Source of the DNA: a virus
Taxonomy: Duplodnaviria; Caudoviricetes
DNA length: 64,000 bases
Reading direction: 5' to 3' (one strand)
IMG/VR virus record: IMGVR_UViG_3300032038_000028
Coordinates: 1 to 64,000 of that record
The position numbers and the translations under genes were made by a program. Of the stretch, positions 4,904-49,428 are shown piece by piece (within the stretch, counting starts at the first letter, position 1; each line of letters starts with the position of its first letter). Below the pieces are notes generated by a model. The model made no database searches. It was not told the origin of the DNA and worked only from the letters and a program-made list of their open reading frames with translations.

Positions 4904-4928
4904 GTGGGATTCATCAGGAGGGTTGCGC

Positions 4929-34200: not shown

Positions 34201-37200
34201 CTTAGAAACGCACAGAATAAGATTGCTCAGCTGCAGGGACTGCTCAAGGCCAATGAAGCCTCTACACTGGATGAAGCTATTGAGCCGAAAACTGAGAATG
34301 CCGAAGACACCACGGTCGCTACCGGCCTCGATCAGCCGCTGACCACGGAGACTGCTGTGTCTGGCGACGAAGAAAAAGCAGCGAAAGCGGCACTGAAGGC
34401 ACAGAAAAAACAGGAAGAGCTCGCAGAACTGCAGAGTATTGCGGAAGATGCATGGCTGAAGTCGTTCGAGGACACGCAAGACAGCGTACAGGAAACGGCG
34501 GATACCCAAATTGATACTGCGGAAGCGGAAGCCGAGGCTATGCGTCAGCGCATGAAGGATGCGGCCGATCTGGATCGTCGGGAACGGGCAGAGCAGGCGG
34601 CGAGTGACGCTGCGGCTGGCGAGGCATTGCAGGACAGGCTGGAGACGCAGTCGAAGCTCGATCAGCAGGCGCAGTGGCAGGAACAGCTGGCAGCTGCGGT
34701 TGAACAGGCTGGCGGTCTGGGCGGGATTACCGACCCGGCACTCCGCAAGTCGGTCGAAAACGCCACGAACGCGCTGATCGGATACAACACGGACGGCAAG
34801 GTTATCCCAGAACAGGATATCGCGGATCAGATCACCGAAGCCATCGACGGGATGCAGGAGTATCTGCAGACGCAGGAGCAGGAGGCTCTGGCGGAGCAAC
34901 GGGCTGCGCAAGACGAAAAGCTCGCGGAACTGGAACGGGAGCGCGCCGATCAGGAGGCCCAGGATCAAGAGGATCTTAATGCTGCCCTCCGCGAAACAGC
35001 AGAACAGACTGCCGAAACGGCTACAAAGAGCGGCTCAACCTTCCAGAGCATGGAGGACGTTGCCGCTGCCATGGCTAACCTCGACAACGAGGTCCGTGGA
35101 TTCGGTGGAGCCCATGATGTGACGCCGGAACAGCAGCAGACACTGGACGACATATCGACATCTCTGAACGGCGAGTACGCCAGTCTGAACGAGGCTGTAC
35201 AGGCATATGATAATGCCGTCGACGCGATGAATCAGTTGAGGAGCGACGTAGAGACCAGCGAACAGACGCAGGGTCTGACGCAAACTCCTCCTGCTTCTGC
35301 CGGCACGATCGCGGGCACAGAGTCCCCAGTCGATACCGTTACCTCTGCGTCGGTCGAGCCGGAAGAACTGAACGTCGAAACCAAATCAACGGCGGTTGAA
35401 TCCAAGAAGAGCACGAATGTCAATACAGGCACCGGCACATCCATGTCGGCGAGTGACATGGAGAACATGCGGCTGGATGCTCTCAGCACAATGTCGCGGC
35501 TGGAAGATATGTCGGCGAACAAAAAAGGCTCCGACGGGCAGCCGCTCAACCAGAATCAGCTGAGTGCGCTTGACAAGGCGGTCAGCCAGCTCGAGCAGGC
35601 GCTAACAGACGGCGGAGCGCAGGCGCTCCAGGACGCGCTGACCACTGCGCAAAAGGCGGAATCCGGTGTCCAGACGGAGCAGACTGCCACCTATACCGAA
35701 ACTGCGGTGACTCCGGCTGTTGAAGATGCGACAGCCACGGTACATGTGGAGACCGAAGAAGCACCGCCTGTTGTGCCTCCCGAAGAACCCACTGTTACCG
35801 TCCATACAAATGTGGAGGATCCTGGATCTATCAGCGTTCCCACGCCTCCGACAGTCACCATCCCGGTACAGTACGGCGACCCAGGTGAAATCCCGACCGG
35901 CGGCGGTGGTGGCGGCAAAGACGCAGTTCGCACCGTCAGCGCAGCCGCAGGGGGCACGGACGATGCAGCCGGCGGCATGACGCTGGTTGACGAGCTTGGC
36001 GCCGAGCTGATTGAGCACCGCTCCCGCGGCACCTATGAACTGGGCACCAACAACGGCGCACGCTTCGTAAAGCTGGATGCTGGCGACGTCGTACACAATG
36101 CAAAGGAAACCAGGAAGATCCTGAAGCGCGGCATGGCGATGGCCAACGGCGGCGTAGTGACAGGACGAGCAATGTCCAGCATAAGCAATGGCAAAGATAT
36201 GACCGGTGGCTCCGATCAGGCCGCGGCCATCGCCAAAGCCCAGCGTGATGCCGCAGCGGCACAGGAAGCAGCTGCAGCCGCGCTTAACTCTTCAGACAGG
36301 AAGGCCAAGGCACTTCTTGAGTGGATCAAGAAGGTGCTGGATTGGATCCCGACGTACCTGAACGAGTTGAAGAAAAAGACCACACAGTTTGTCGGAGCAG
36401 CGGACGACGCCGTACATTATCTGAGCCAGAACAAACTGCTGGACAGCGCCATCGAAAACATCGCAGAAGAAATTCAGGCGAACATCAGCTCGGTGGTCAG
36501 GTACCGCAGCTTCCTCAGGGAAATGCAGACGACGGGCGGGCTGTCAGATGAGATCGTTGCGAAGATTCAGAACGGCACGATTGATCTGGAGGCATACAAT
36601 AACGAGGAAACGGTAAAGGCTATTCAGGCCTACCAGCAGTACTGGGAAAAACTGGTTGCCTGTCAGGAAGCGCTTGCTACGCTGAATGATCAGATGGAAG
36701 CCCTGAGCCAGCAGAAGCTGGACAACGTCGTGTCCTACTTCGACAGGATCGACGGGTTGTTGCGCGACCAGCAGAAGCGGTTTGAAGGCCTGATTGACCT
36801 GAAGAAACAGTACGGCCAGGAGCTGACCGGCGCCGATTACATGGACTCTCTGACCAACATGGAGCAGATTCTGGCCAACGCTCAGAACGAAGAGCAGGCC
36901 CTGCTCAAGGAGCTGGAAGACCAGCTCGGTGTAGGCGGAGACATGGTACAGGCTATCCTGAACGGCGGTAAAGATGTATGGGAAGCCATTGCAGCTCATG
37001 TCAAGAAGGGTGTGGACGAAGGCGTCACCGACCTGCAGGAAGCCATTGACGAGAATCTGGTCTACCGGACGGTCGCGCATTACAATACCGGCACCGGTAC
37101 GGAAAAGCTCGGCTCCATGACTGATATTGCAGCTACTTCGGCGACACCGGAAGTCACCCAGCTGTCGCTGGCCGACGTACAGAAGATCGCCACCGGTGCG

Positions 37201-38556
37201 ATGAACATCAACCTGGATCAGGTGCCGGCGGCCCAGCGTGCAGCGGTGCAGGCGGCGATCAAGGGCACGACGAGCACGTTCAGCAACGCAACAAATAAGA
37301 ACACCAAAGTCCAGGCTATTCTGGATAAGATGCAGGCGTCCCAGCAACAGTACAGCAGCAAGCAGGTTAATCAGCAGGCCCTGCCGCCTGTAGAGATCTC
37401 TCTGGTCGATGTACCGGTCACCCCGGCTACGGATGAAGACATGGTTGCCATCGGCGAGATGCTGGGCATGAATGTGGCGGATGGCTCTGAAGAAGCGCTG
37501 AAGAATCTTGAGGCCATCAAGTCTCTCTTCACGACGTCGTGGGACAACCCGCTGGCTATCGGCAGCGACACCTGGTACTCCTACATGTCCACGCTGGAAA
37601 ACCTGAAGGAGTCGATCACCCAGACGAAGATTGAAATCAGTGAGATGAACGACACGATTGCTGACATCCCTCTGACCAACCTGAAGACTGGCTACGACTA
37701 TCTGGAAGAGATCCAGCGCAATCTGGAAGGCATGAACAACCTGCTGGATGCGCAGGGGTCGGACAAATACGCGGGGACGTATCGCAGCATGATCTCTGTC
37801 GGCATGCAGCAGATCGAAAACCTGCAGGAGCAGAACCGGCTGATCGAGGAGCAGATGAGCACACTCGATCCATTGTCTGAAAAGTATCAGGAGCTTCGCG
37901 GCGATCTGACGGGCAACCTCGACACGATCGCGGACATCCGCAAGAATCAGGAAGAGTGGAATGACGCCATCATCGACCTGCAGATCGAGCGGCTGAAGAA
38001 GCAGAACGACAGCTACAAGGAACAGCTCCGGCTGATGCAGGCGCTGGATGATCTGGACAAGGCGAGGCAGCGCAGGCTGCTGATCTACCACGAAGACACA
38101 GGCTTCCAGTACGAAGCGGACGAGGATGAGCTTGAGAGCGCACAGGAAGCGGCGAACGACGCCATCTTCAGCAGCATCGTCAGCGACCTCGAAAAGTCGA
38201 AGGCAGACAGCAACATCTACGGCCCGCTGGGCGAGAGGCTGATCAGCGGATCGAGCATCCTTGACTCTCTGGGCAACGTGCTTGTGCCGGTAGAGGACAA
38301 GCTGAGCGGGCTTGACTTCGAGCCCTACTACCAGAGCATCGTGTCCGGGTCTGAGCAGTCCGGCCTCCTCGAAGGCCTGCTGCAGAGCATCGACCTGAGC
38401 AAGCTGCTTGAAGCGTCGATTGGCGGTAACGTCAACATCGACATCGGCACCATGACCCTGAACGAGGTACAGAACGCAAAGGATCTGGGCGACGCGATTA
38501 TCAATCAGCTGCCCTCGTATCTGCTGCAGGCGCTGTACAAGAAGGGCGCGAATTAA
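25264..38556 (+). CDS. Tail tape measure protein (TP901-family core), 4430 aa
   Basis: Core MADLKKVT...ANNYAVT..DI..GLQKSASAL...GSALKVLSMRIRG at about 29.3-30.1 kb; largely helical; LVDELGAELI...GARFVKL..GDVVHN motif near the C-terminus. Confidence 0.9.
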   Translation: MTEKDVQATGNGIFNIGDIQVVQGGKDGATTIHVVVESKDNGGRDNQNNMPDMSGFISAAEALQASVDRLTEATNGELQATGVYQALRDEIAGLRSGDSKYYNARRGEAMSAEGARWLEQLLNDPHIADMPAAMRALWNDIMEDHGENISDSWRQRAKNAVSMMDNVSQMITGLWSEDDIRHPERYNSKITIPELRMTPEKMRAQNRAQLEAIAQNTMAYVRESRALEDELLAKTKGQQQQPPAAERTRERREKQQDEQRAAQREQRETGGRKETSIKADKVQVSSDKAPEVSGGQSDQGSERKTGKAQARGALEDAVRDLEQKGGAGGAPGGSGKAPVGGAGGGAGGGSGTPPVVPPTGGSGSTPPVDRNTVRYFDNLTELNKSLREDYKLGGIADDIVKQLGSLKSSASDISATFDGKGNLSGISLNAKSVALGDVKTARLQYGVTGSPEEGYAWSGAASRTLASPQKLKDLQKALNSDTAAQQERLNTWLKHDALALNADGRNTMRERLLDNISDYVYQNAKGQTKLGHKDAATGKVTNLTRDELKGLTDNLDTFDQRMSAINKGMRQDLVSRGIDDIQGKFDKRVGMVAGLKDRLNAIGINPNDAKAVFGNGESVKKLFGDINKATQSFQKHTGNIEAQVEDYNKLHDLTRRAQQAVQQEESQSRAAVSGAQRSARIQSRKDAANRALGMPGAEQNAKQAENLRQAMTQLDKAKTPAETVAALANVKKYTDDLTRSTREYGKQADKAEATQTRMANADKQIADMGAKLKAAGLDKPQSLKDAEAASRYYGSSKDAAKQQGWADKTLEHLGTANTEVSKALKQFESSSKKAESQYQRMMKNDLLGSGDRKAIEKAYGDYSAKQNQSTLEKLQTAMNTATANIAASDKSNKTEELRARVASKRVDLEASSRRAGGRDSGKWSKEQVTLAKAASANLTAAEQALSDGGIKNARSYLSRATTQIGQLNKQLGETERVANKAAAAQKQNDAEAERSAKEQTRQAVQTEAAQTRAERNAFYGNVNEAARDRMDLAKATYAATGDAKDLKKYQNEVNNVQWAEKVEQMKAYQEQLSLLMNPTGTPGRNDSANWAVAQQQQLQNLMNLQQQFQSIRHNGRDQSAADTVLGQMRAETQQLMHDLNATEKIKQAMAKTTGGKNYSRVDQDLRDNLNQAMDAMMSAAPDQFAAKMNAVQEALKAVNTSMQAIGAQDYWAQQSAALDQYQAKLNSMNQRNGGMDSWTESQRSTSAGIQQALDAARAAMSAKDMGAYQAAMGRVQGNSRLLDTSLTNISRLAGGAKPPVDALTRSLMNIAAPMMLWRRFTGYMKKAAQNVSAIDSQMADLKKVTSNTSAEYDQFLTSTGKNAVAIGSSISDLVATTSTFAHMGYGLTESQALGVTATKFANVGGFKNTTDAADTMIAAIKGFSDLEIGDADIVGDKLTAVANNYAVTVEDISNGLQKSASALNVAGNNIDQSTAMITAIAEVTRDAGAAGSALKVLSMRIRGAKAELEDAGESTEGMASSTAKMRAEVMGLTNVDGKGGVDIMADEETFRSTYDIMNDIAQVWGKMSDINRSALLEKLAGKVRSNQAAALLENFETARNALETAQQSEGTMNRVHQRWLDSVEARKAQFEAAQETASMTAMPANTLKGLYQAGTVGMNMLNSLMGNIFGLGVGSGSHGVAAGIMGAASMLRSGNGNIWAGIGNAFNLHRGGRGQADIIAAYNRAYQDATNPLTYNNKEASLAAAQINGRTANKYTQRLIEQAEGTVDATKATGGLISSLKSFTKNAIGGIATFAAINAGVALLNASMDWLSENVVNRSEHLNAVASSSYAQYEETKRNADAVIAERDQVGQQVQELEKKQAEGTITTQETSRLAQLESQLRELEHQAAVTRQQQVAESDQAFTDWMAARASRGQNVMGTSAMYKTLGAMLGNGGFDSVGDAVTSVLGSVWESTSGWATGLWTGINPTHSMQTLYREEADNAGAVRNRADRLLQTYGGNKGNLTPEGARAIANMYQNMLGFQKMAEGFDETKMSTAEVMQGYRFAQQQYQAIEAQMKESAAAYGNTMYEALSGEKAFQNIFSNWANIQMRATNAMYGAEQETRQYFPMYADLVRNGLNSPAYNTVMANAIRESLAMREMLAGEGEDASLQKFDFLNSLLRAAGFEDAMDSMHDMASKGQDAASITDQITKKFGALGTLLEGLRIPIGDLANLTVASVEAAKQAPDETAGGGAVADTIESSQDNINALLSAQQAAAKIWKDSGFTGALDTTSKDFTELMAMDGGAYQAALERANGGLFFSKDAFDKIVQQKYREELAALRQDVLKTQQKYTEAATKVVEEMKSGTVSQESYEAMLGYGTQLTEYANRMAQINYGMSDMANWISNKGGAESGDAYDELGEAINAITGGKSSGLTGTREFAAAMRFVTGKEIGSGAGQVLLGDLSSKTMSYMQALGAVDKNGKPDQAARRNALAAFQKDMKAAGILDKTGAVAVAGMTTGQMADKFNEKYGTQFGADFMQSILMGINDYIQDPAEKYDISTETPESKRAEEARKNFQDAVKAWREAPADLEDAQKQALLDGVVEAGEAMTKAQLQDMVANGSTEQAAAAAATLANLDKQETADPLTSVLGKLDATLSALNTTLSKENKDEEGGKKGKGADEYQDTKEVPDKPAFTSGKSTFASAEAEATSLAGLTQEIKDYESKHGGSDALTELIGEAENEGASYDTILEKWNNYRSNVEEAEQQAVQQAAEEAKSSKWSFGKLADQYDDTKTIRDKPKRAFTTGPSTFQDAEEAGKALADLGEQAKALEKQYGSSDALTELIGEIETEGADYDTMLNKLNNVRSDLEEAAANATEAEAETAKQLSRNALDKGNALHGTLKEQEASGLAQAIEQQVAEDLQEQAETATQTRTGFKFGKLADQYDEDIATPKPGTDQQAIREQLQETITQAQDAGIVIDEATETVAMQMEDVSESGATASTELLRNAQNKIAQLQGLLKANEASTLDEAIEPKTENAEDTTVATGLDQPLTTETAVSGDEEKAAKAALKAQKKQEELAELQSIAEDAWLKSFEDTQDSVQETADTQIDTAEAEAEAMRQRMKDAADLDRRERAEQAASDAAAGEALQDRLETQSKLDQQAQWQEQLAAAVEQAGGLGGITDPALRKSVENATNALIGYNTDGKVIPEQDIADQITEAIDGMQEYLQTQEQEALAEQRAAQDEKLAELERERADQEAQDQEDLNAALRETAEQTAETATKSGSTFQSMEDVAAAMANLDNEVRGFGGAHDVTPEQQQTLDDISTSLNGEYASLNEAVQAYDNAVDAMNQLRSDVETSEQTQGLTQTPPASAGTIAGTESPVDTVTSASVEPEELNVETKSTAVESKKSTNVNTGTGTSMSASDMENMRLDALSTMSRLEDMSANKKGSDGQPLNQNQLSALDKAVSQLEQALTDGGAQALQDALTTAQKAESGVQTEQTATYTETAVTPAVEDATATVHVETEEAPPVVPPEEPTVTVHTNVEDPGSISVPTPPTVTIPVQYGDPGEIPTGGGGGGKDAVRTVSAAAGGTDDAAGGMTLVDELGAELIEHRSRGTYELGTNNGARFVKLDAGDVVHNAKETRKILKRGMAMANGGVVTGRAMSSISNGKDMTGGSDQAAAIAKAQRDAAAAQEAAAAALNSSDRKAKALLEWIKKVLDWIPTYLNELKKKTTQFVGAADDAVHYLSQNKLLDSAIENIAEEIQANISSVVRYRSFLREMQTTGGLSDEIVAKIQNGTIDLEAYNNEETVKAIQAYQQYWEKLVACQEALATLNDQMEALSQQKLDNVVSYFDRIDGLLRDQQKRFEGLIDLKKQYGQELTGADYMDSLTNMEQILANAQNEEQALLKELEDQLGVGGDMVQAILNGGKDVWEAIAAHVKKGVDEGVTDLQEAIDENLVYRTVAHYNTGTGTEKLGSMTDIAATSATPEVTQLSLADVQKIATGAMNINLDQVPAAQRAAVQAAIKGTTSTFSNATNKNTKVQAILDKMQASQQQYSSKQVNQQALPPVEISLVDVPVTPATDEDMVAIGEMLGMNVADGSEEALKNLEAIKSLFTTSWDNPLAIGSDTWYSYMSTLENLKESITQTKIEISEMNDTIADIPLTNLKTGYDYLEEIQRNLEGMNNLLDAQGSDKYAGTYRSMISVGMQQIENLQEQNRLIEEQMSTLDPLSEKYQELRGDLTGNLDTIADIRKNQEEWNDAIIDLQIERLKKQNDSYKEQLRLMQALDDLDKARQRRLLIYHEDTGFQYEADEDELESAQEAANDAIFSSIVSDLEKSKADSNIYGPLGERLISGSSILDSLGNVLVPVEDKLSGLDFEPYYQSIVSGSEQSGLLEGLLQSIDLSKLLEASIGGNVNIDIGTMTLNEVQNAKDLGDAIINQLPSYLLQALYKKGAN

Positions 38557-40994: not shown

Positions 40995-41190
40995 AGCAGA
41001 CCAGAGCGGCAAGATCCTGATCACGGCAGAGGAGATCGAGAAGATTGTTTCGGACGCCTATGATCAGGGTTATCAGGACGGCAAGGGATCTGTGGTGACG
41101 GTCACCTGCGATCCGCAGACGACGTGGAACAAATGGCCGCCCAACATCACCTGCGACAGCGTTACGTTCTCCAGCGTAGATAGTCACTGA
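40975..41190 (+). CDS. Hypothetical protein (71 aa)
   Basis: AAGGAGG RBS; AYDQGYQDG motif. Confidence 0.55.
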   Translation: MKPVILKADQSGKILITAEEIEKIVSDAYDQGYQDGKGSVVTVTCDPQTTWNKWPPNITCDSVTFSSVDSH

Positions 41191-41204
41191 GAGACTGTAG
41201 CGAC

Positions 41205-41278
41205 ATGTGACGGGGCCTTGACCACACGGGTGGATAAGTTGTAAGGGTCTGAAGACAGGCGTCTCTACACGTCGCTGA
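41205..41278 (+). repeat. 74-bp inverted repeat, copy A
   Basis: 58/74 ungapped identity (manual count) to the reverse complement of 43024-43097, including an exact 20-bp core GGTGGATAAGTTGTAAGGGT. Confidence 0.9.
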
Positions 41279-41285
41279 AGCAAGT

Positions 41286-41335
41286 AAAAAAAGGGATAAC
41301 AGGCGAACTCAATCGCTTGCTATCCCTTATTTTTT
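41286..41335. terminator. Bidirectional terminator ending the structural operon
   Basis: AAAAAAAGGGATA...CAGGCGA/TCGCTTG...TATCCCTT-ATTTTTT. Confidence 0.7.
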
Positions 41336-41478
41336 CTGGTGCGTACTGTGTGCTCAACTGAAAACAGGGTGCCCCAGCGTTCAGGTCAGCATACAACACG
41401 GCGTATAATATACGGTTTTTTCTGATTCTGTCAAAGACCAAAAAGACAAAAGACCCTGATTTCACAGAGTCCTTTGAA

Positions 41479-41525
41479 TGGTGGGACCAGTAGAACTCGA
41501 ATCTACGACCTCCACGATGTCAACG
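41479..41525 (-). other. attP core: 3' half of tRNA-Val(GAC)
   Basis: - strand reads CGTTGACATCGTGGAGGTCGTAGATTCGAGTTCTACTGGTCCCACCA (anticodon loop with GAC, T-arm, acceptor 3' strand, CCA); no 5' half; 44 bp from the integrase stop. Confidence 0.88.
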
Positions 41526-41539
41526 GACGTGAAAAATGT

Positions 41540-41590
41540 TTTGCATAAAAATGAGGTATCACATGGGCGTTATTTGCATAAAAATGCAGT
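41540..41590. promoter_or_regulatory. Two ARG-box-like sites (direct repeat TTTGCATAAAAATG) beside the attP core
   Basis: 41573-41590 TTTGCATAAAAATGCAGT fits the ARG-box consensus WNTGMATWWWWATKCANW at all 18 positions; 41540-41557 is a partial match. Confidence 0.55.
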
Positions 41591-42682
41591 ATTGACGGCG
41601 CCCCTGTACTTGAGAATTCCTTCCTTCCGAGCCGTCGCGTAGATGGTTTCGACCATACGGGTGTCGGCGTGTCCAAGCAGGTCGGCAACCTGTGCGGATG
41701 TCATACCGGACTCCTTGAGCTGGGTGGCGAAGGTGGCCCGCCAGTCATGGTTGTTGTAGCCGGTCATCCTGAGCTTCTTGAATACGGCCCGCATCGTCCG
41801 CTGAAACGTGGAGATGGAAGCAGGCTGCTTCGGGGTGCGGCCTTCGATTACGAAACCGGAGCGGCGCTGCTCTGGGCGGAGGATGTCGGCCAGTGCGTCC
41901 GGGATCAGGAAGATGCGCTCGGAGCTGGCTGTCTTGGGGTGATCTTTAATCACGGTGCGTTTGTTGTCCGGGTAGACGACGACGCGGGTGATGTGGCCGT
42001 AGCCTTCTTTCAGGTTGATGTCTTCCCAGCGCAGGCCAAGGATCTCTTCCCGGCGCATACCGGTATACACGAGAAGGGCGGCGTACAGGCGCTCCCGCCG
42101 GTCGGTGAGCCCGGGCACTTCGGCACGGATGCGGGTCACCTCTGCGTCTGTCACAGCCTTGTGATGGTGGGACGGGACGCCGTGGTTGCGCAGCAGGACA
42201 GGTTTGTAGGGCGAATCCCGGATGACGTGCAGCGCCTCTGCCACCCGGAGGATGCGGCCGAGAAAACCGCCGATGCGCTCAATGGTGCGCCTGGTGATGT
42301 CCTGCCTGAAGCCGTTCTGCGAGCCGTGGGCCAGCCAGTCGTACAGATTCTGAATGTCGACGATGGTGATCTGATCAATAGGAACGCGGCCGAGGAACGG
42401 GTAGATGTAGCTCTCCAGATAGCGGGAATAGTTGCGCTGGGTGGTCAGCTCCAGGTTGTCGATAAAGGACGAGCGGAAAGTGTGCTCGACGAATTCGATC
42501 AGAGTAGGGGCGTGCGTGCGGGGTGTGGTTGGTATCAATAAATCAGTGCTTAACATGGTGGCATCCTTTCCCCGTGTTATACCCTGAACAGAACACTGAG
42601 GTATCATATTGTCAAGGTACGCCGGGGCAGTCAGCCCCATGTCGTTTCCAGTATAGCCTGTGGGGCCGCGGTTGTCAATCAT
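41570..42682 (-). CDS. int: Phage integrase (tyrosine recombinase)
   Basis: TGMRREE, PKT, HDWR, LGH...Y catalytic motifs; adjacent to tRNA-derived attP; an internal start (MLSTDL...) is also possible. Confidence 0.92.
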   Translation of the reverse strand: MIDNRGPTGYTGNDMGLTAPAYLDNMIPQCSVQGITRGKDATMLSTDLLIPTTPRTHAPTLIEFVEHTFRSSFIDNLELTTQRNYSRYLESYIYPFLGRVPIDQITIVDIQNLYDWLAHGSQNGFRQDITRRTIERIGGFLGRILRVAEALHVIRDSPYKPVLLRNHGVPSHHHKAVTDAEVTRIRAEVPGLTDRRERLYAALLVYTGMRREEILGLRWEDINLKEGYGHITRVVVYPDNKRTVIKDHPKTASSERIFLIPDALADILRPEQRRSGFVIEGRTPKQPASISTFQRTMRAVFKKLRMTGYNNHDWRATFATQLKESGMTSAQVADLLGHADTRMVETIYATARKEGILKYRGAVNTAFLCK

Positions 42683-42756
42683 AACTTTCTCCGGTACTGT
42701 AACTTAAACAGAGTTGTAAAAGGCCCGGCCGGCGGTGATGCCAGTCGGGCGCGGGG

Positions 42757-42957
42757 TCAGTTGAGACCTGCCAGCTTCAGGTTGTGCAGGAGGAACCTGT
42801 ACCCATCGAGCAGATCAAGGATCAGATCAACGGTGCCCGTTTGCAGGGCGACGGTGTCTTCGTTGAGCGACGTAGCGTGTTCGATCTCGTCGATCACGGT
42901 GCAGATCCCGTCGTTTTCGCCGATGACGTCGCCTACGGTTTGAAATTCGTTTCGCAT
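42757..42957 (-). CDS. Hypothetical acidic protein (66 aa)
   Basis: AAGGAG RBS; followed by a hairpin at about 42722-42750. Confidence 0.55.
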   Translation of the reverse strand: MRNEFQTVGDVIGENDGICTVIDEIEHATSLNEDTVALQTGTVDLILDLLDGYRFLLHNLKLAGLN

Positions 42958-43023
42958 AGCTTCTCCTTGTGGTAATGCATTTCGGCAATTTTTGGAAATA
43001 TTGCCAATGTGTATAGAGGAACC

Positions 43024-43097
43024 TCAGCGACGTGTGACGGGGCCTGTCGTGATACCCTTACAACTTATCCACCTGCATGGGTGAGGGGCCGTCACAT
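43024..43097 (-). repeat. 74-bp inverted repeat, copy B
   Basis: Partner of 41205-41278; contains ACCCTTACAACTTATCCACC. Confidence 0.9.
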
Positions 43098-43157
43098 TGA
43101 GCTGAGGCGGCTCAGAGACTACGTGAAAAACGGGCGCAGACTTTCAGGAGAAAACCC

Positions 43158-43186
43158 TTGTGAGCCTGCGCCCTGTATGTTATAAT
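43158..43186 (+). promoter_or_regulatory. SigA-type promoter of the small toxin-like ORF
   Basis: TTGTGA-17 bp-TATAAT with extended TGn. Confidence 0.7.
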
Positions 43187-43263
43187 GCGGGTGCTGTGGC
43201 TGGTACCGAAGCCTGTGAAGCCGACAAAGCATAAAGCCATTCTTATGCAGAGGAGGTGATCGC

Positions 43264-43344
43264 ATGACTGAGTATCAACTTCTGGTGCTTGTCATCATGA
43301 TCGCGCAGTTAGCCTTTGAGGTATTAGCGTACCTGAAAGACTGA
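43264..43344 (+). CDS. 26-aa hydrophobic peptide, candidate type I toxin (MTEYQLLVLVIMIAQLAFEVLAYLKD)
   Basis: Strong RBS GAGGAGGTGA, own promoter, single TM helix with charged end, structured 3' UTR and terminator; absent from the ORF track (too short). Confidence 0.65.
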   Translation: MTEYQLLVLVIMIAQLAFEVLAYLKD

Positions 43345-43444
43345 CACAGTAAGCGAACCTTCCGGGACTGCATGCGCCTGGAAGACGCCGTCTGAGGACT
43401 GATCAACCACACAGACGGCGCAGAATGCAAAATCCAGACGCAGC

Positions 43445-43491
43445 AGAACGGTATGTGTGACGTCGCGCATACCGTTTCTTTTTTTTTTTTT
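43445..43491 (+). terminator. Strong intrinsic terminator
   Basis: AACGGTATGTGTGA-CG-TCGCGCATACCGTT followed by a long T run. Confidence 0.8.
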
Positions 43492-43517
43492 ACAGCTGCC
43501 CGCATCACAACCGCACG

Positions 43518-44120
43518 TTACTTGCCGGTGCTGCCCAGACCGCCGTTACGGGCTTCAGTGGTCTCGTCGTCGTCGGTCGTGCCGAAGGGCAGGATCACGC
43601 CCTGACAGATGGCCTGACCGGCCCTGATCTCAACGGGCGGGTTGCCCGGGATATCAGAGCGGATGTTGACGAAGATGTCACCCTCGTTGTCGGAGAAAAT
43701 GTAGTCTCTGTCGATGAGGCCAACACAATTTCCCAGACGGCTGTACTGTTTGATGCCCAGCCCGGACTTCGGGATCATGATCAGGCAGAAGTCGGGGTGC
43801 AGCTCGCACTGAATGCCAGTCGGGAAGGTGATGCCGCGGGGGTTGACCGTCATGTTGCTCATCGCAAAGGGGATGGGGGAGAAGAAGTCATACCCGGCGG
43901 AACCGGTAGTGGCGCGGACGGGCAGCTTGATGGCGTCATAGGCTTCCTTCATGACGGCGTCGGGCAGGTTAAAGCCGCAGTCGATCATGTCGTGCCTGAA
44001 CTGCTCGAAGGACACCTTGCGGAACTTCGCCACCTTGCGGAAGGTATAGTGGCGGTCGATCTCTTCGGGGGTGACTTCGTTGGGAGTGGTGGTAGAGGCG
44101 GCCTTGGTTTTGGTAGCCAT
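43518..44120 (-). CDS. dut: Trimeric dUTPase
   Basis: GSAGYDF, PKSGLG, GLIDRDY, ICQG, RNGGLGSTG; GAAAGGAG RBS before MATKTK. Confidence 0.92.
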   Translation of the reverse strand: MATKTKAASTTTPNEVTPEEIDRHYTFRKVAKFRKVSFEQFRHDMIDCGFNLPDAVMKEAYDAIKLPVRATTGSAGYDFFSPIPFAMSNMTVNPRGITFPTGIQCELHPDFCLIMIPKSGLGIKQYSRLGNCVGLIDRDYIFSDNEGDIFVNIRSDIPGNPPVEIRAGQAICQGVILPFGTTDDDETTEARNGGLGSTGK

Positions 44121-44424
44121 AGTGGTTTCTCCTTTCGATGGTTGGTGCGGCGGCACGAATCGGACGTGCCATTAAGTCCAGTAGTGTGCGGGTGCTCTTG
44201 CTGAGAACCAGACACCGCGAGCTTTACTTTTCGCATACGGAAAAGCGCTGAGAGTAAAGATTCCTGATGTCGGAAGTAAAGGCCGTGCGGAGCTTCGCAC
44301 TCCTGCAGCACGTCTGCCGGGATGTCAGTGACTATTTTAACGTGGTACGCCCCCACATGTTCCCGCATACGGACGCCGTGTATTGTCTTCCACTGCGTTT
44401 ATCTTTCGCCAACGGCCGCATAAG

Positions 44425-45036
44425 TTAAAAAGTTGAAGCATCAACTGAACGATCAACATAGTACTCGTATTTTCGGCAACTTCTCTTCGGCGTATCTATA
44501 TGTGCGAATCCATAAAAAGTCAGCGGTTGCTTAACCAAGGCGCGTTCCAAGGCTTTGTCAATCTGTATTCGTAGCGGAAAGGTGAACGTACATGTATCAT
44601 CGTCCTTCCCTTCGCATCGTACAAAAACATACACCGGCATCGTGCAACTGATTTCTATGAGTGCGACATATAACCCCTGATCATCAAAAACGAAATCGTC
44701 GTCAGCGAATATAATGTCACCAGCATTAGGCTGAGGGCATAAGACTCTTCGATCGCCATTATCATCTTCATCAGTCAACTTATCAACAGTTGGCAAAACA
44801 CAGTATGCTATGATTTCGTCATCAGGAATTGATCGATACATGCCAAAGGAACTCTGAATTAAGAATACATCGGCGCTCTCGCTCCATAAAGCAATAACAT
44901 ATACTTTATCATCTATGAACGCGTAGTCGGTATATTCTTCGTCAAATTCTTTGAGGCACGTCTGTGTTTGCACAACACATACGCAGTCGCCCCCTGACGG
45001 TCTGCCTAGATGCTGCCAATATATTGGATCGTACAT
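44425..45036 (-). CDS. Low-GC hypothetical protein (moron-like)
   Basis: 203-aa ORF, GAGGAG RBS, visibly AT-richer than its flanks. Confidence 0.6.
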   Translation of the reverse strand: MYDPIYWQHLGRPSGGDCVCVVQTQTCLKEFDEEYTDYAFIDDKVYVIALWSESADVFLIQSSFGMYRSIPDDEIIAYCVLPTVDKLTDEDDNGDRRVLCPQPNAGDIIFADDDFVFDDQGLYVALIEISCTMPVYVFVRCEGKDDDTCTFTFPLRIQIDKALERALVKQPLTFYGFAHIDTPKRSCRKYEYYVDRSVDASTF

Positions 45037-45089
45037 ATTGATCTCCTCTGGTGTGTTATTACACAGTAAACCGCGTTTACTGTGGAAAA

Positions 45090-45368
45090 TCAGAACGTGA
45101 TCTGCTCGGTGCTGGGCGTCCCGTACATGCGGAAGTTGTCCAGCGCGGGTGGGAATTCACCGTCATTGGTGGTGTTCAGCAGGAACAGCTCGGTCGGATG
45201 CTCGGTGGCCATGTAGAGCAGGCCGAGCATGGAGCGGGCGTTGACCCGGTGCGTGCCGTCTTTGCTTTCGACGACGTAGTTGCTGTCTTCGCCGGCCATC
45301 AGCTTGAGGAAATCGAGAATGGCTGGCTGGGTGTCAAGGGCGATATGTGCCCGGATGTAAGGCTTCAT
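45090..45368 (-). CDS. HPr/Crh-like protein
   Basis: 92 aa; RVNARSMLGLL matches the HPr Ser46 signature; no recognisable His15 (GLHARP) motif. Confidence 0.65.
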   Translation of the reverse strand: MKPYIRAHIALDTQPAILDFLKLMAGEDSNYVVESKDGTHRVNARSMLGLLYMATEHPTELFLLNTTNDGEFPPALDNFRMYGTPSTEQITF

Positions 45369-45918
45369 AGGCTTCCCTTCTTTCTTTGACGTGCTTTTCA
45401 GCGTCTGCGATGATTTTGTCGGGGTCGTAGGGGATGTTGGGGTCAGGCCACGGCTCCCTGTACTCTTCGTTGTATCGGAGGATCTTGGCCCGCAGCGTGT
45501 CCAGCTGCTCGGAGATGTCGATGCCGGAATATTCCCGGGCGGAAATCAGCCCGTAGACCAGCGGCCATCCCCACAGGGTTTCGTGCTCGCTGGTCAGGAA
45601 GAGCCCGACATACTTGTTGTCCCACACCGGCTCGGTGCCGTCGTAGTGCAGGAAGATCATGTCGTCCTTGAACAGATGGTTGTGGTGCGGGAGACGGCAG
45701 GGCCGGTAGATCAGGTTGGTTACCCGGCTGGTGTCGACGTAGCGTGTGTTCCAGTAAGTGAGCTCGACGTACCACGGCGGGAGATCTTCGGGCCGGATCT
45801 TCGTGGGGTAGATCCCGTTCGACAGGAGAAACTCCGGTGGCTCGAAGCACTGCTCCATCTTGCCGTGGGTGTAGTAGTGGGCCTTAAAGCGGCGGTTGAC
45901 CTTCTCGATGTCGTTCAC
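45334..45918 (-). CDS. Hypothetical protein (194 aa)
   Basis: Coupled to neighbouring genes, AAGGAGG RBS. Confidence 0.6.
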   Translation of the reverse strand: MNDIEKVNRRFKAHYYTHGKMEQCFEPPEFLLSNGIYPTKIRPEDLPPWYVELTYWNTRYVDTSRVTNLIYRPCRLPHHNHLFKDDMIFLHYDGTEPVWDNKYVGLFLTSEHETLWGWPLVYGLISAREYSGIDISEQLDTLRAKILRYNEEYREPWPDPNIPYDPDKIIADAEKHVKERREAYEALHPGTYRP

Positions 45919-46436
45919 AGGATCCCCTCCTTTACTCTGTCCATAATGTCCTCGGCCATGACGTCACTGAAACAGGTGATGGTGACGCTACTCATACCGT
46001 AGTAGATGGCAACGACTTCGCGCCAGCAGGCGGACTCGACGATGGTAGCGACGATCTGCCCGCCGCCAGGTACGGTGTCGATCATGACGGAGTCGCCGTG
46101 GAGATAGACTTCCATGACGGCCTCCTGAAAGATTTTGACGTAGCGCTCCTCGACCTGATCGTGCAGGATCCTGCTGCGCCTGCCGAGATGCTTCTCGCCG
46201 TAGCGGTCGATATATGGGGTCAGGCCCAGCGTGTCCAGATCTTTTGACAGCTGACCCTGATTGCACCCCAGCCCGCGCTCGGCCAGCCATTCTGTCAGGG
46301 CGACCTGACCGGTGTAGACTTCCTTGCGGGCGAATTCGAGGATGGCCTTCAGGCGCTTGCGGCGCAACTCTTTGAAATACTCAACGCCCTGGTTATTGAT
46401 GATGGCGACCTGTTTGGCGCCCTGTTCGGATGGCAT
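45915..46436 (-). CDS. ArgR/AhrC-like repressor homolog
   Basis: Winged-helix pattern R..AILE....TGQ..L...L...G...NQGQLSKDL..LGL and C-terminal domain IDTVPGGGQIVA..VE...W.EVV; canonical GTIAGDDT appears as AIYYGMSS. Confidence 0.75.
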   Translation of the reverse strand: MPSEQGAKQVAIINNQGVEYFKELRRKRLKAILEFARKEVYTGQVALTEWLAERGLGCNQGQLSKDLDTLGLTPYIDRYGEKHLGRRSRILHDQVEERYVKIFQEAVMEVYLHGDSVMIDTVPGGGQIVATIVESACWREVVAIYYGMSSVTITCFSDVMAEDIMDRVKEGIL

Positions 46437-46508: not shown

Positions 46509-47183
46509 TCATGACGCCACCTGCTCTTCCTGCTTGTGGTGTCTGTAGTGCTTTTGTACCGGCGCAGTGAAGGCGCGCTCGACGTCCCAATGATACCGAA
46601 ATATGCGCTGCCACAGTGTCACCACTTTGATTCCAAACGTCGCGGCCCAGTCGGACAAACATCGCGTAACGCCATGATAGGTGATCTTGATGTTATTGCG
46701 TCTATTACGCTGCTGCTCGGCCATGGTAATCCATCGGCAGTTGACAGGGTTATATCCTTCGTTGACGTCGATGCGGTCAAGGGTCAGATTCTCCTGATAC
46801 CCGGTGCGCTCCGCCCACTGCATGAAGTTCGCAAAATCATGCCACTCCTCGCAGACGGAGACCCCGCGCCCGCCGTAGTTGTCGTAATTCGTGCTGTGCG
46901 GGTTTTCGCATCTTGTGTGCATATTTGTCCAGATGCTATATAAGCGTGAGTAGCACTGGCCGTGTATTGTGTGAGCTGCCCTCACCCGTTCCTTCTGCAG
47001 GCATCCGCAGGATGTTGTGCGCCCTCTGCGCAGATCGGAGCCCCGAACATCCTTCTCGTTGCCGCAGTCACACAGACAGCGCCATCTGGCAGTACCATGC
47101 TTATCACACGCAGGATCAGCACGCCCGACTACCACCAACCTGCCGAAGCGCTGGCCTGTCAGATCAATAAAGGCACGCATCAA
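46509..47183 (-). CDS. HNH-type homing endonuclease
   Basis: DLTGQRFGRL, CLCDCG, SCGC, YGGRG..VCEEW, TLDRID.N..Y.P.NCRW. Confidence 0.8.
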   Translation of the reverse strand: MMRAFIDLTGQRFGRLVVVGRADPACDKHGTARWRCLCDCGNEKDVRGSDLRRGRTTSCGCLQKERVRAAHTIHGQCYSRLYSIWTNMHTRCENPHSTNYDNYGGRGVSVCEEWHDFANFMQWAERTGYQENLTLDRIDVNEGYNPVNCRWITMAEQQRNRRNNIKITYHGVTRCLSDWAATFGIKVVTLWQRIFRYHWDVERAFTAPVQKHYRHHKQEEQVAS

Positions 47184-47662
47184 ATCACCTCTCCATACTG
47201 GTTATCAGACGCCAGATCCACGCCGAGCACTTCGTCAAAGTGCGGCTGCTGTCCGGGGACATACCGGCCGTATTTCATCACGATCTGTACGCCGCTGATA
47301 CCCTTCAGCTCGTCGAAGAAGCCGAGCCTCTGCACTTCGCACTTGGTGTAGCCGGTATAGATCACGAAGGTGGTCTGAACGCCGCGCTCGACGGCACGGC
47401 GGATCAGACGGCACACTTCATGGATCTGAAGCAGAGGCTCCAGACCTGCGATCACGATGGCTTTGGTGATGGGGTCGGTCAGATAGGCGTCAAGAATCTC
47501 GTCGTCCGGGATCTCGGTAACCGGCAGCCTGGCGACCGGGTGGTTCTGGCAGACATACGGGTTGTCCGGGCAGCACTTCCAGTCGCAGAAGCAGGCGGCG
47601 AGATACAGGGACGGTTCTTTGTAGTCTTGAAAACGCTCTGTCAGCATCTTTCTGACTCTCAT
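47180..47662 (-). CDS. nrdG: Anaerobic ribonucleotide reductase activase (radical SAM)
   Basis: CDWKC...CQN, GLEP, IYTGY, GRY, LASDNQ; directly downstream of nrdD. Confidence 0.8.
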   Translation of the reverse strand: MRVRKMLTERFQDYKEPSLYLAACFCDWKCCPDNPYVCQNHPVARLPVTEIPDDEILDAYLTDPITKAIVIAGLEPLLQIHEVCRLIRRAVERGVQTTFVIYTGYTKCEVQRLGFFDELKGISGVQIVMKYGRYVPGQQPHFDEVLGVDLASDNQYGEVI

Positions 47663-47667
47663 AGGCT

Positions 47668-49428
47668 TTACTCCGTCAGCTGGTTGCGGTCTTTGAATTC
47701 GTTGGCTTTGCCGCGGTTGAAGTTGTCGACATCCCGCAGGTAACCCGTAATGCGCTGGAATTTATGCAGGCGTTGTTTGCAGATGGGGCATTTATCTACG
47801 CGCTCCATCACATAGCCGTGCTCCGGGCAGTACCGGGAGATGGGGGAAATGCTCATGTAAGGGACGTTGTAGGTCTCGAACATGGCTTTGACGATTTCCT
47901 TTGCATGCTCGCCGGGAATGGCACCATCCATGTAACAGTGGATAACCGTACCGCCGGTAAAGAGCGTCTGAAGATCATTCTGATGGGCGAATGTGGAGTT
48001 GATATCCTTGACGTCGCCTACCCACAGGTGGCAGGAGTTGGTGTAGTAGACATCCTTGCCGCCGGGGCCCTGCGTGATGATGTCCGGGTAATCCTTCTTG
48101 TCGATCAGGGCAAGGCGGTGCGAGGTGGCCTCTGCGGGGGTAGCTTCCAGGTTCCACAGGTTTCCGGTTTCTTCCTGATACTGAACCAGCCTGTCGCGCA
48201 TGTGATTGAGCACGTCCCGCATCAAGGCATGGCCTTCTTCGCTGCGGATGTCCTTGCCGAGCAGGTTCAAGCACATCTCGTTACCGCCCACCAGACCGAT
48301 GGTGCTGAAGTGATTGCGCAGGGTACCGACATACTCGATAAAGGCAGGTATCAGCTTGGCGTCGATGACGTTTTCCTGCAGCCATTTGCGCTTGATTTCC
48401 AGACTGTCTCTGGCGATGTCCATGTATTTATCCAGAGACTCCCAGAACTTCGCTTGATCGCCGTGGGCTTCGTAGGCCATGCGCGGCAGATTCAGGGTAA
48501 CCACGCCGATGGAGCCGGTGCTGTCTCCGGAGCCGAACAGACCGCCGTTTCTGCGGCGGAGCTCACGCAGGTCAAGCCTGAGCCGGCAGCACATACTCCT
48601 GGCGTCGGACGGATCCATATCTGAGTTGATGAAGTTGGCAAAATAGGGCGTGCCGTACTTCCCGGCCATCTCCCAGAGCAGCTTGTTGTTGGGATTATCC
48701 CAGTCGAAGCGCTTGTGGATGTTGTAGGTGGGGATCGGGTAGGCAAACAGCTTGCCTTCTGCGTCGCCGTTCAGCATGATCTCAAAGAAAACCCGGTTGA
48801 GCAGATCCATTTCCTGCTGGCAGTCCCCGTAGGTGAAGCTGACCAGATCACCGCCGACGATGGCGTAGTCGTCAATCATGTCGGCAGGAGGCGTCAAGTC
48901 GAACGTCAGGTTGAAGAAGGCCGGCTCAGCCCCGCCGCGGCTGTTGCTGTTGACGGAGAAGATGAAGTTCTGCATCGACTGCTTGACTTCGTTGTAGCTG
49001 AGCTTGTCCGCCTTGATGAACGGAGCAAGCAGGGTGTCGAAGCTGTTAAAAGCAACGGCTCCCATGATCTCGTTCTGAAACACGGTGACCAGATTCGCGC
49101 ACTGGTTGAGCACGGAATCAAAGTGCTTGGCCGGGGCGGATACGGGGATGTTGGACACGCCACGGACGCCTTTATAGAGGATGTCCTTCAGGGAGTACCC
49201 GCAGCAGTACAGCGTCAGCCCGCCCAGATCGTGGATATGAATATGGCCATCGACGTAGGCCTGAGAGATGTACTCCGGGTACACCTCCCGGAGCCAGTAG
49301 TCCTTGCTGACCTCGGCGGTCATGTATTTGTTGAGCGCTCCGAAGGAAAACGGGCTGTTGGAATTCTCCTTGGTGCGCCAGTCGGACTTCTTCAGGTACG
49401 CTTCGACGATGGCCTTGGAATTCTTCAT
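47668..49428 (-). CDS. nrdD: Class III ribonucleotide reductase (short form, no ATP cone)
   Basis: HIHDL, RSMCCRL, EATPAE, YYTNS, CPEHG...CPIC, RITGY glycyl-radical motif. Confidence 0.93.
   Translation of the reverse strand: MKNSKAIVEAYLKKSDWRTKENSNSPFSFGALNKYMTAEVSKDYWLREVYPEYISQAYVDGHIHIHDLGGLTLYCCGYSLKDILYKGVRGVSNIPVSAPAKHFDSVLNQCANLVTVFQNEIMGAVAFNSFDTLLAPFIKADKLSYNEVKQSMQNFIFSVNSNSRGGAEPAFFNLTFDLTPPADMIDDYAIVGGDLVSFTYGDCQQEMDLLNRVFFEIMLNGDAEGKLFAYPIPTYNIHKRFDWDNPNNKLLWEMAGKYGTPYFANFINSDMDPSDARSMCCRLRLDLRELRRRNGGLFGSGDSTGSIGVVTLNLPRMAYEAHGDQAKFWESLDKYMDIARDSLEIKRKWLQENVIDAKLIPAFIEYVGTLRNHFSTIGLVGGNEMCLNLLGKDIRSEEGHALMRDVLNHMRDRLVQYQEETGNLWNLEATPAEATSHRLALIDKKDYPDIITQGPGGKDVYYTNSCHLWVGDVKDINSTFAHQNDLQTLFTGGTVIHCYMDGAIPGEHAKEIVKAMFETYNVPYMSISPISRYCPEHGYVMERVDKCPICKQRLHKFQRITGYLRDVDNFNRGKANEFKDRNQLTE

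Follow-up and report, generated by a model that had tools for sequence, protein, structure and literature searches.

ArgR-type boxes beside the tRNA-Val attachment site of a rumen Christensenellales phage and several related phages

Can the arginine repressor (ArgR), whose role as a recombination accessory factor is so far known only from plasmid dimer resolution, also take part in phage integration? This question is raised by a temperate ~113-kb phage of rumen Christensenellales (IMG/VR record IMGVR_UViG_3300032038_000028, 112,852 bp), of which we analyzed positions 1 to 64,000 (hereafter, the window). A preliminary description of this DNA reported two ARG-box-like repeats beside a tRNA-Val attP core, a phage-encoded ArgR-like protein without the arginine-binding motif, and an integrase with no recognizable arm-binding domain, and it proposed ArgR-controlled integration and excision. 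We confirm what it observed. Its interpretation, however, is supported only in part. The features of the locus are collected in the table below.

Features of the attP-int junction and the neighboring module (positions in the 64,000-nt window)
Position	Strand	Feature	Basis
41447..41476	-	Intrinsic terminator directly after the CCA end of the tRNA fragment; resembles the host tRNA-Val terminator and is part of the host-like attP cassette	12-bp stem followed by a T run; similar terminators follow tRNA-Val at empty attB sites, for example locus L046
41479..41525	-	attP core: 3' half of tRNA-Val(GAC), from the anticodon loop to CCA	Identical to tRNA-Val in L007/G001 (a host-clade genome) and in six other Clostridia/Christensenellales MAG contigs; ARAGORN finds no complete tRNA in the window
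41540..41557		Box 1: half ARG box (core TGCATAAAAATGAG, 2 mismatches), 18 nt from the anticodon loop	Lies within a ~21-nt stretch absent from the sister phages L044 and L045
41573..41590		Box 2: perfect ARG box (core TGCATAAAAATGCA at 41575-41588), 51 nt from the anticodon loop	Overlaps the last six codons of int (TAFLCK; stop at 41570-41572)
41570..42556	-	Tyrosine integrase, 328 aa from M43, without the N-terminal arm-binding domain; the ORF as listed runs up to 42682	Pfam Phage_integrase and SAM_3; alignments with relatives; RBS GGAAAGGA plus ATG conserved in the armless clade
42650..42678	-	Conserved promoter (TTGACA-17-TATACT) upstream of int, read by ORF callers as an N-terminal extension (MIDN..YT)	Both hexamers invariant in 7 loci that carry three different int types; corresponding residues 1-40 disordered in the model of a relative
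45915..46436	-	Phage ArgR homologue, 173 aa (ORF extends to 46502): winged HTH and ArgR C-domain, Asp-Asp pair replaced by Met-Ser	Profile, alignment, and fold comparisons; the start at 46436 agrees with homologue P0003
43518..49428	-	Nucleotide-metabolism module: nrdD (47668-49428), nrdG-like (47180-47662), inserted HNH endonuclease (46509-47183), argR-like, a 194-aa ORF, a 92-aa ORF, and dUTPase (43518-44156)	Same gene order in loci L005, L007, L040-L043, and L097

The tRNA-derived core is a 47-nt stretch that is the reverse complement of the host tRNA half. The record is a free phage genome, so this site is attP. Two copies of TTTGCATAAAAATG lie 33 bp apart between this core and int. The sequence TGCATAAAAATG occurs at 41542 and 41575; no such pair was found in shuffled sequences, and only one copy with a single mismatch was found elsewhere in the window. 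The repeat extends to 20 nt with 18/20 identity. The core of box 2 is a perfect palindrome, whereas box 1 has two mismatches in its right half (ATGAG). Two points of the preliminary description require correction. Box 2 is not intergenic, and it does not fit the ARG-box consensus at every position if the Escherichia coli 18-mer WNTGAATWWWWATTCANW is the reference, to which it has 2 mismatches.

Box 2 does, however, match the operator pattern of the host clade, TGHATWWWWATDCA, exactly, and it fits the general form of an ARG box, an 18-bp imperfect palindrome with conserved TG.AT / AT.CA arms and a 4-nt A/T center. In G001 (3.3 Mb, with an identical tRNA-Val half and a related prophage), this pattern has only four exact hits, all in the argG and argC operators, and the same genome encodes a canonical ArgR. 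The sites are ARG boxes by the standard of the host clade's own arg operators, although their binding by ArgR is inferred from sequence alone. The phage genome has 3 exact hits, against 0.03 expected under a model that keeps local composition, and the reversed pattern has 0. Five other host-clade genomes have 1-3 exact hits per ~3 Mb; note that only 3 of the 8 exact-hit sites examined in these genomes (of 11 in all) sit next to arg-related genes. The canonical operator layout of two boxes separated by 2-3 bp (39 bp in all) is absent from the window, where the boxes start 33 bp apart with a 15-bp gap, rather than the canonical 20-21 bp. The host argC and argG boxes lie 43 and 52 bp apart.

The ArgR-like gene is real. 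The product scores 28.4 bits against the C-terminal oligomerization domain, Pfam Arg_repressor_C (PF02863; cut-off 25). Against the N-terminal winged-helix domain (PF01316), the single sequence scores 22.9 bits, below the cut-off of 27, but the family profile matches Bacillus subtilis AhrC (1f9n) over its full length (residues 4-147, E = 7e-14). All top fold hits of the model are ArgR, with TM 0.84-0.94 and rmsd 1.1-1.8 Å to ArgR C-domains. Compared with AhrC structures (1f9n, 2p5l, 2p5m), the C-domain matches at rmsd 1.1-1.6 Å and the N-domain at 1.4 Å to the AhrC N-domain bound to DNA (2p5l, TM 0.84). Identity is nevertheless only about 18%, the protein has a 20-45 aa N-terminal extension, and its TIGR01529 (argR_whole) score is 45.1 bits against a cut-off of 130, whereas a host ArgR (L025) scores 138.5. 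The arginine-binding motif GT[IM][AC]GDDT is missing: GTICGDDT in AhrC aligns with AIYYGMSS, and the segment reads G-[MLQWITP]-x-x in all 16 homologues and in the proteins P0140, P0142, and P0143. The phage protein belongs to a rare divergent clade that lacks the Asp-Asp pair.

The absence of an arm-binding domain, judged by eye in the preliminary description, was confirmed by comparison with relatives. The catalytic domain of a tyrosine recombinase, with R, H-x-x-R, H, and Y, is present (PF00589, 75.7 bits), with the conserved TGMRREE, HDWR, GHAD, and ETxY. An in-frame replacement removes about 25 aa, including the conserved MPSxYRxxY..G hairpin. The model of a relative, P0019, shows a beta-hairpin plus helix at residues 43-80, and most of this segment is deleted in the window protein. 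Its sisters P0021 and P0022 (78% and 75% identity) also lack the domain. Relatives of this integrase (L028, L034-L038, L065, and L084) have classical pairs of direct arm repeats between int and the core, and the window has none. Because this integrase has no arm-binding domain, the alternative that the boxes are ordinary integrase arm sites, also raised in the preliminary description, is unlikely here.

We then asked whether such boxes recur in related phages, and found that ARG-like boxes are concentrated at attP across this integrase family. In ten loci, 12 of 14 hits with at most 1 mismatch lie within 300 nt on either side of the anticodon-loop crossover, a zone that makes up 12% of the sequence (binomial P = 6e-10), and the reversed-pattern control gave 0 hits. 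Per-locus simulations on the flanks gave P = 0.01, <0.0002, and 0.0014. Locus L081 has a tandem pair 20 bp apart, 11 nt from the core, which is the canonical ArgR operator layout (PMC4381063) and the only such pair seen. In phage G159, the only two hits in 107 kb are at the int 3' end; in G158, 3 of 4 hits are at attP. The attPs of sister phages with a type-B integrase (L005, L041, and L043) have no hit even at 2 mismatches, and empty attB flanks have none. The recurrence of ARG-like boxes at attP in related phages, far more often than chance allows, gives the idea of ArgR acting at attP its first comparative support. The feature is not universal, however. No box was found on the arms of the G001 prophage (integrase 74% identical, argR-like gene present), nor in L074, L079, L050, or L067. 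The attPs of sister phages with a type-B integrase (L005, L041, and L043) have no hit even at 2 mismatches, and empty attB flanks have none.

The argR-like gene itself is not specifically tied to attP. It sits in the nrdD-nrdG-dut module in phages with three different integrase types, and four of these phages or prophages (L005, L041, L043, and the G001 prophage) have no ARG-like box at attP. Conversely, box-bearing attPs occur in G002 and G158, where no argR-like gene was found, although these records are only 86% and 70% complete. One further lineage, G159, has both features.

We consider it most likely, with moderate confidence, that the ligand of these boxes is the host's arginine-sensing ArgR hexamer, possibly joined by the phage copy. 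What the analysis shows is the sites and their enrichment, the ArgR fold without the Asp-Asp pair, and the loss of the arm-binding domain; binding of either protein and any effect on recombination are inferred. ArgR bends DNA by about 70-90 degrees. Bound on the phage-specific arm, on the anticodon side of the crossover, it would act as an accessory or regulatory DNA-bending factor in an IHF-like role, coupling integration or excision to arginine status. In the window's sub-lineage, the integrase has lost its arm-binding domain, the tRNA-derived core has been inverted and moved next to the int stop, and the ARG boxes are the only recognizable accessory sites left. The phage ArgR homologue, part of the nrdDG-dut early module, is a plausible second, arginine-independent ligand for the same boxes and for two other perfect boxes in the genome, but it is not obligatorily linked to attP, and a dedicated role for it is not shown. 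That it might poison host ArgR hexamers, as the preliminary description suggested, remains conjecture.

Several findings weigh against this reading, and the most skeptical alternative, which we regard as doubtful but not negligible, is that the boxes have no function. Box 2 lies in coding sequence and could be a chance product of the variable C-terminal codons of int, while box 1, which repeats the int 3' end in frame (TSFLCK against TAFLCK), could be a remnant of a small insertion or duplication made when the core cassette was inverted. The sister armless phages L044 and L045, in which the core lies 5-11 nt after the int stop, manage without box 1, so the boxes cannot be strictly essential for the armless integrase. 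The hits in L044 (2 mismatches) and L045 at 52-54 nt fall in conserved, AT-rich KYKN codons and may be by-products of coding. Three near-identical variants (the window, L027, and L053) give no power to detect constraint. On the other hand, the chance of an exact hit in the attP flanks is about 0.01 or lower, the family-wide enrichment has a clean control, and independent lineages place boxes on the phage-specific arm regardless of core orientation and of which tRNA half the phage carries (L065).

It is also possible, though unlikely, that the palindromes are bound by some other protein, such as a different host nucleoid or bending protein or an unrecognized phage directionality factor, and that their likeness to ARG boxes is a coincidence of AT-rich dyad symmetry. 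Phage attP arms commonly carry sites for host bending proteins, as for IHF in lambda; distances from the crossover vary (11, 18, 21, 30, and 51-54 nt); and some far arms carry variants with 3- or 5-nt centers (L084), which a strict ArgR site would not tolerate. Yet the key G4/C15 positions and the 4-nt W center are kept in most sites, L081 has the ArgR-typical pair, the same pattern picks out arg operators in the host clade, and no Xis-like HTH gene was found next to int in the window. Somewhat less likely still is that the arginine-blind phage homologue is the dedicated ligand, made together with the early and replication genes as a directionality factor or repressor of recombination, with host ArgR irrelevant. 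Two separate lineages, the window and G159 (L097:1240-1725), both have an ArgR-like gene 3-4 kb upstream of int and an exact ARG box at the int 3' end, the exact boxes in the phage exceed expectation, and the recognition-helix region is retained (SKD or SRD in the family, against SRD in AhrC). This reading is opposed by the phages that have only one of the two features, and by the gene's conserved neighbors, which are nrdG and dut rather than int, the integrase type varying next to it.

A bolder scenario is not excluded, but we consider it improbable on present evidence: host ArgR would be the IHF-equivalent architectural factor of a family of tRNA-Val integrases in phages of Clostridia, so that lysogeny and excision respond to arginine status, and the arginine-blind paralogue that some of these phages additionally encode in their early module would occupy the same attP/attR boxes on induction as an override or directionality factor. 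In the window lineage, this could have allowed the integrase to lose its arm-binding domain.

Among known systems, ColE1 cer offers an established precedent, with a tyrosine recombinase core site flanked by an ARG box, a recombinase (XerCD) without an arm-binding domain, and ArgR, alongside PepA, as a DNA-bending, arginine-dependent accessory factor (PMC5357621, PMC2409434). Here, the recombinase is a phage integrase, the site is a tRNA-derived attP, and the boxes lie 11-54 bp from the crossover; the ARG box within the ~180-bp accessory region of cer lies about 100 bp from the core. A cer-type mechanism cannot be transferred directly, because only attP and attR would carry boxes and the cer topological filter needs accessory sequences on both partners. 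In the lambda-type intasome, a host bending-protein site likewise lies on the phage arm next to the core, but the putative bender here is a metabolite-sensing hexamer rather than IHF, and the window integrase has lost the arm-binding domain and the arm repeats. At P1 loxP, a proposed upstream ARG box was neither bound by ArgR nor functional, and ArgR and PepA had no effect on Cre (PMC2409434). The boxes described here, likewise predicted from sequence, match the host's own operator pattern perfectly and recur in related phages.

ArgR is known as a recombination accessory factor only at plasmid cer sites, and the one proposed phage case was refuted. Our findings also define a rare phage clade of arginine-blind ArgR homologues, a natural integrase sub-lineage without an arm-binding domain, and a set of attP variants with and without boxes and with either core orientation, each testable in its own right. 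A conserved ARG-box signature on the attP arms of a whole integrase family would extend metabolite-sensing accessory control to phage integration in anaerobic Firmicutes, which lack a well-defined IHF-type partner for integrases. It would also give a direct molecular link between amino-acid status and the decision to lysogenize or excise in gut and rumen phages.

The window is the first 64 kb of an IMG/VR virus record of 112,852 bp that is rated 100% complete, and no complete tRNA gene is present in the window. We found that the same 45-47 nt that form the putative integration core occur in tRNA-Val genes of rumen Christensenellales and Clostridia MAGs. One of these MAGs, G001 (L, G and P numbers denote loci, genomes and proteins, respectively; G000 is the whole phage genome), holds a related prophage next to that tRNA. 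The site is therefore attP of a temperate phage of rumen Christensenellales. Searches for the core among viral contigs, and for the junction with the armless type of integrase among metagenome contigs, gave 0 hits each. Likewise, among seven genome contigs that carry this tRNA half, no lysogen with the arrangement of the window was found. The features of the region are collected in the following table.

Coordinates of features in the phage genome and in related loci
Feature	Location	Strand	Description
attP core	window 41479-41525		Exact reverse complement of the 3' half of tRNA-Val(GAC), from the anticodon loop to CCA
Terminator	window 41447-41476		Host-like intrinsic terminator following the core
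Box 1	window 41542		First copy of TGCATAAAAATG
Box 2	window 41575		Second copy of TGCATAAAAATG, within the perfect palindrome TGCATAAAAATGCA; last six codons of int (TAFLCK)
int stop	window 41570-41572
Promoter upstream of int	window 42650-42678	-	TTGACA-17-TATACT
argR-like gene	window 45915-46436		Start agrees with homologue P0003; the ORF extends to 46502
HNH homing-type endonuclease	window 46509-47183	-	phrog_374, E = 4e-80; inserted between nrdG and the argR-like gene
Promoter-like site, conserved stretch and terminator	window 41286-41434	-	TTGACA-16-TATATT (41434-41407) just after the tRNA terminator; about 100 nt conserved with L044 follow, ending at the bidirectional terminator 41286-41333
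Promoter-like site and small ORF	window 43158-43345	+	Extended -10 element (43158-43186) and an RBS precede a 26-codon hydrophobic ORF (MTEYQLLVLVIMIAQLAFEVLAYLKD), between the int cassette and dut
Hairpin element	window 41181-41280 and 43021-43125; G000 ~83952-84005 and ~92950-93050; L044 1-25 and ~1475-1500		75-100 nt, conserved motif CCCTTACAACTTATC[CG]ACC
Xer-like recombinase gene	G000 82883-83824		Next to one hairpin copy
Further ARG-type boxes	G000 76880-76930, 77590-77610, 81040-81130 (L002, a further stretch of the phage genome, 12880-12930, 13590-13610, 17040-17130)		Outside the window
attP core of L065	L065 3880-3990		5' half of tRNA-Val with its own promoter
Two very long ORFs	window 4923-12053 and 25264-38556	+	2,376 aa and 4,430 aa, in the structural region

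The repeated boxes beside attP that the preliminary description pointed out are indeed present. The two copies lie 33 bp apart, against a chance expectation for the window of 0.22 sites at up to one mismatch, and no shuffle reached the observed count. The repeat runs for 20 nt with 18/20 identity. Because the 33-bp units are alike only over these 20 nt, a simple tandem duplication remains no more than a possible origin of box 1. Box 2 is coding sequence and is not intergenic. It had been described as fitting the 18-bp ARG-box consensus at every position; however, it has two mismatches to the E. coli 18-mer, and a scan of the whole phage with that consensus returned no hit at one mismatch or fewer. 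A sigma-70 scan found no promoter over the boxes, and we reject reading them as promoter elements; no known RNA families were found in 40.5-47.5 kb.

We therefore replaced the E. coli consensus with a pattern derived from the arg operators of the host clade. G001 encodes a canonical ArgR, and its argG and argC leaders carry TGAATATATATGCA, TGTATTTTTATTCA, TGCATAAAAATACA and TGTATAATTATGCA. The pattern TGHATWWWWATDCA has exactly four exact hits in this 3.3-Mb genome, and they are these four. Five further host-clade genomes have one to three exact hits each, including sites next to argC, argG and an amino-acid-binding protein, but also sites next to unrelated genes. Box 2 is an exact hit, whereas box 1 has two mismatches in its right arm. 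The phage genome has three exact hits, at 41575, 76910 and 77593, against an expectation of 0.03 when 200-bp local composition is kept, and the reversed pattern gives none. Of the ARG-type boxes outside the window, one is a pair 21 bp apart that overlaps extended -10-like TGTGTATAAT motifs, one sits just upstream of a small-gene RBS, and one lies in an AT-rich region full of TATACA repeats, upstream of a 327-aa ORF and a Xer-like recombinase. Repeated GGTTCCGTTGAACC hairpins precede the RBSs in the same region. We searched for these regions (G000 76.9-81 kb) in G001 and G002, the genome of another related phage, through their flanking proteins, and nothing matched.

The phage-encoded ArgR homologue scores above the Pfam cut-off for Arg_repressor_C, and its family profile aligns to AhrC over residues 4-147 (E = 7e-14). 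An AlphaFold model (pLDDT above 90 for residues 41-195) finds only ArgR structures as its top 30 hits, for both domains. The GTICGDDT segment of AhrC aligns with AIYYGMSS, and all 16 homologues, as well as the more distant P0140, P0142 and P0143, lack the Asp pair. This clade is rare: among 1.84 billion representatives, six clusters reach E <= 1e-10, and there is then a gap before ordinary ArgRs at about 25% identity. The protein falls far below the equivalog cut-off, and PHROGs has no family for it or for its 194-aa and 92-aa neighbors. Its genomic context is constant, namely thyX, nrdD, nrdG, argR-like, a 194-aa ORF, a ~92-aa ORF and dut, followed by an integrase whose type varies (the tRNA-Val type, a second type at another tRNA, or a Tn916-type integrase with Xis). 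Where the window has the HNH endonuclease insertion, the relative L041 instead has an intein inside nrdD. The small hydrophobic ORF between the int cassette and dut could encode a small membrane peptide or be a type I toxin-like gene.

Relatives of the integrase at 74% (L007) and 52% (L028) identity have an N-terminal segment beginning MPSxYRxxYxY..G..., which models as a beta-hairpin plus helix and is the expected arm-binding domain. In the window, 97 nt replace 172 nt there, in frame. The same deletion is present in P0021 and P0022, at 78% and 75% identity, so the armless form is a maintained sub-lineage. The apparent N-terminal extension MIDN..YT, translated by gene callers, is a conserved promoter, the hexamers of which are invariant in seven loci upstream of three different integrase types. 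The boundary of integrase-cassette exchange lies just downstream of it. The armless clade shares an RBS and an ATG at M43, which gives a 328-aa integrase. In this clade, the tRNA-derived core is inverted relative to int and lies next to the int stop, 5-11 nt away in the sister phages L044 and L045 and 44 nt away in the window. All other relatives have the order int, paired arm repeats, terminator, then the CCA end of the core. Although the boxes occupy the position where relatives have arm repeats, we reject the reading of them as integrase arm sites for this phage, because its integrase lacks the arm-binding domain.

Hairpin elements also mark this cassette. Of the four copies in the phage, two inverted ones bracket the attP-int cassette, and the same motif brackets int-attP in L044, next to a 326-aa Xer-like recombinase. 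These could be cassette-exchange or inversion sites. The promoter-like site just after the tRNA terminator is strong, and the stretch that follows it could be a small RNA at the prophage end.

The preliminary interpretation, that ArgR and a phage-encoded copy of it could control integration and excision at these boxes, is supported only in part. Strict co-occurrence of the argR-like gene with attP boxes, a test that had been set beforehand, was not found. Four phages or prophages carry the gene but have no ARG-like box at attP: L005, L041 and L043, which have another integrase type and show no hit even at two mismatches, and the G001 prophage. The gene is therefore not tied to attP. Conversely, no such gene was found in G002 (86% complete) or G158 (70% complete), both of which have boxes at attP. 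The phage G159 has boxes and also encodes a divergent ArgR-like protein beside dut, about 4 kb from int.

ARG-like boxes nevertheless recur at attP of the tRNA-Val integrase family. L028/G002 has one box 11 nt from the core and one in the int 3' end. L044 has boxes at 30 nt and on the other side of the core, and L045 has one at 54 nt. L065, a relative whose core is the 5' rather than the 3' tRNA half, such that integration would replace the promoter-proximal part of the tRNA, has a box 21 nt away. L081/G158, at tRNA-Val(CAC), has a tandem pair 20 bp apart, 11 nt from the core, which is the canonical ArgR operator layout (PMC4381063). L084/G159 has an exact box and a one-mismatch box in the int 3' end, plus degenerate half-sites on the far arm. 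In G159 these are the only two hits in 107 kb, and in G158 three of four hits are at attP. Over ten loci, 12 of 14 hits lie within +-300 nt of the crossover, which is 12% of the sequence (binomial P = 6e-10), and the reversed pattern gives no hit anywhere. Simulations that keep flank composition give P = 0.01, <0.0002 and 0.0014. The feature is not universal in the family, however, as L074, L079, L050, L067 and the G001 prophage have no box. Some hits fall in the AT-rich KYKN codons, and box 1 lies in a ~21-nt insertion that L044 and L045 lack. We noted a possible helical phasing of box distances (11, 21, 30, 51-54 nt), but the sample is too small to rely on.

The concentration of ARG-type palindromes on the phage-specific arm holds regardless of core orientation and of which tRNA half the phage carries. 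They are absent from attB flanks and from the attP of another integrase type in sister phages. Together, this argues for a bound factor specific to this recombination system, and the sequence signature points to ArgR. Note that what the analysis establishes is the boxes and their enrichment at attP, whereas binding by ArgR and any role in recombination are inferred, and the P1 loxP precedent was negative (PMC2409434). We consider the model of ArgR acting at attP about as likely as not. A dedicated role for the phage copy, which may bind the same putative sites without arginine, is unlikely on present evidence. A cer-type topological filter cannot apply, because only attP and attR carry boxes. 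That the boxes also occur in phages without a detectable argR-like gene points to host ArgR as the common ligand. ArgR hexamers bend DNA by 70-90 degrees (PMC4381063) and assist Xer at cer (PMC5357621), so an IHF-like accessory or regulatory role for ArgR in the integration of these phages, although inferred, is mechanistically plausible.
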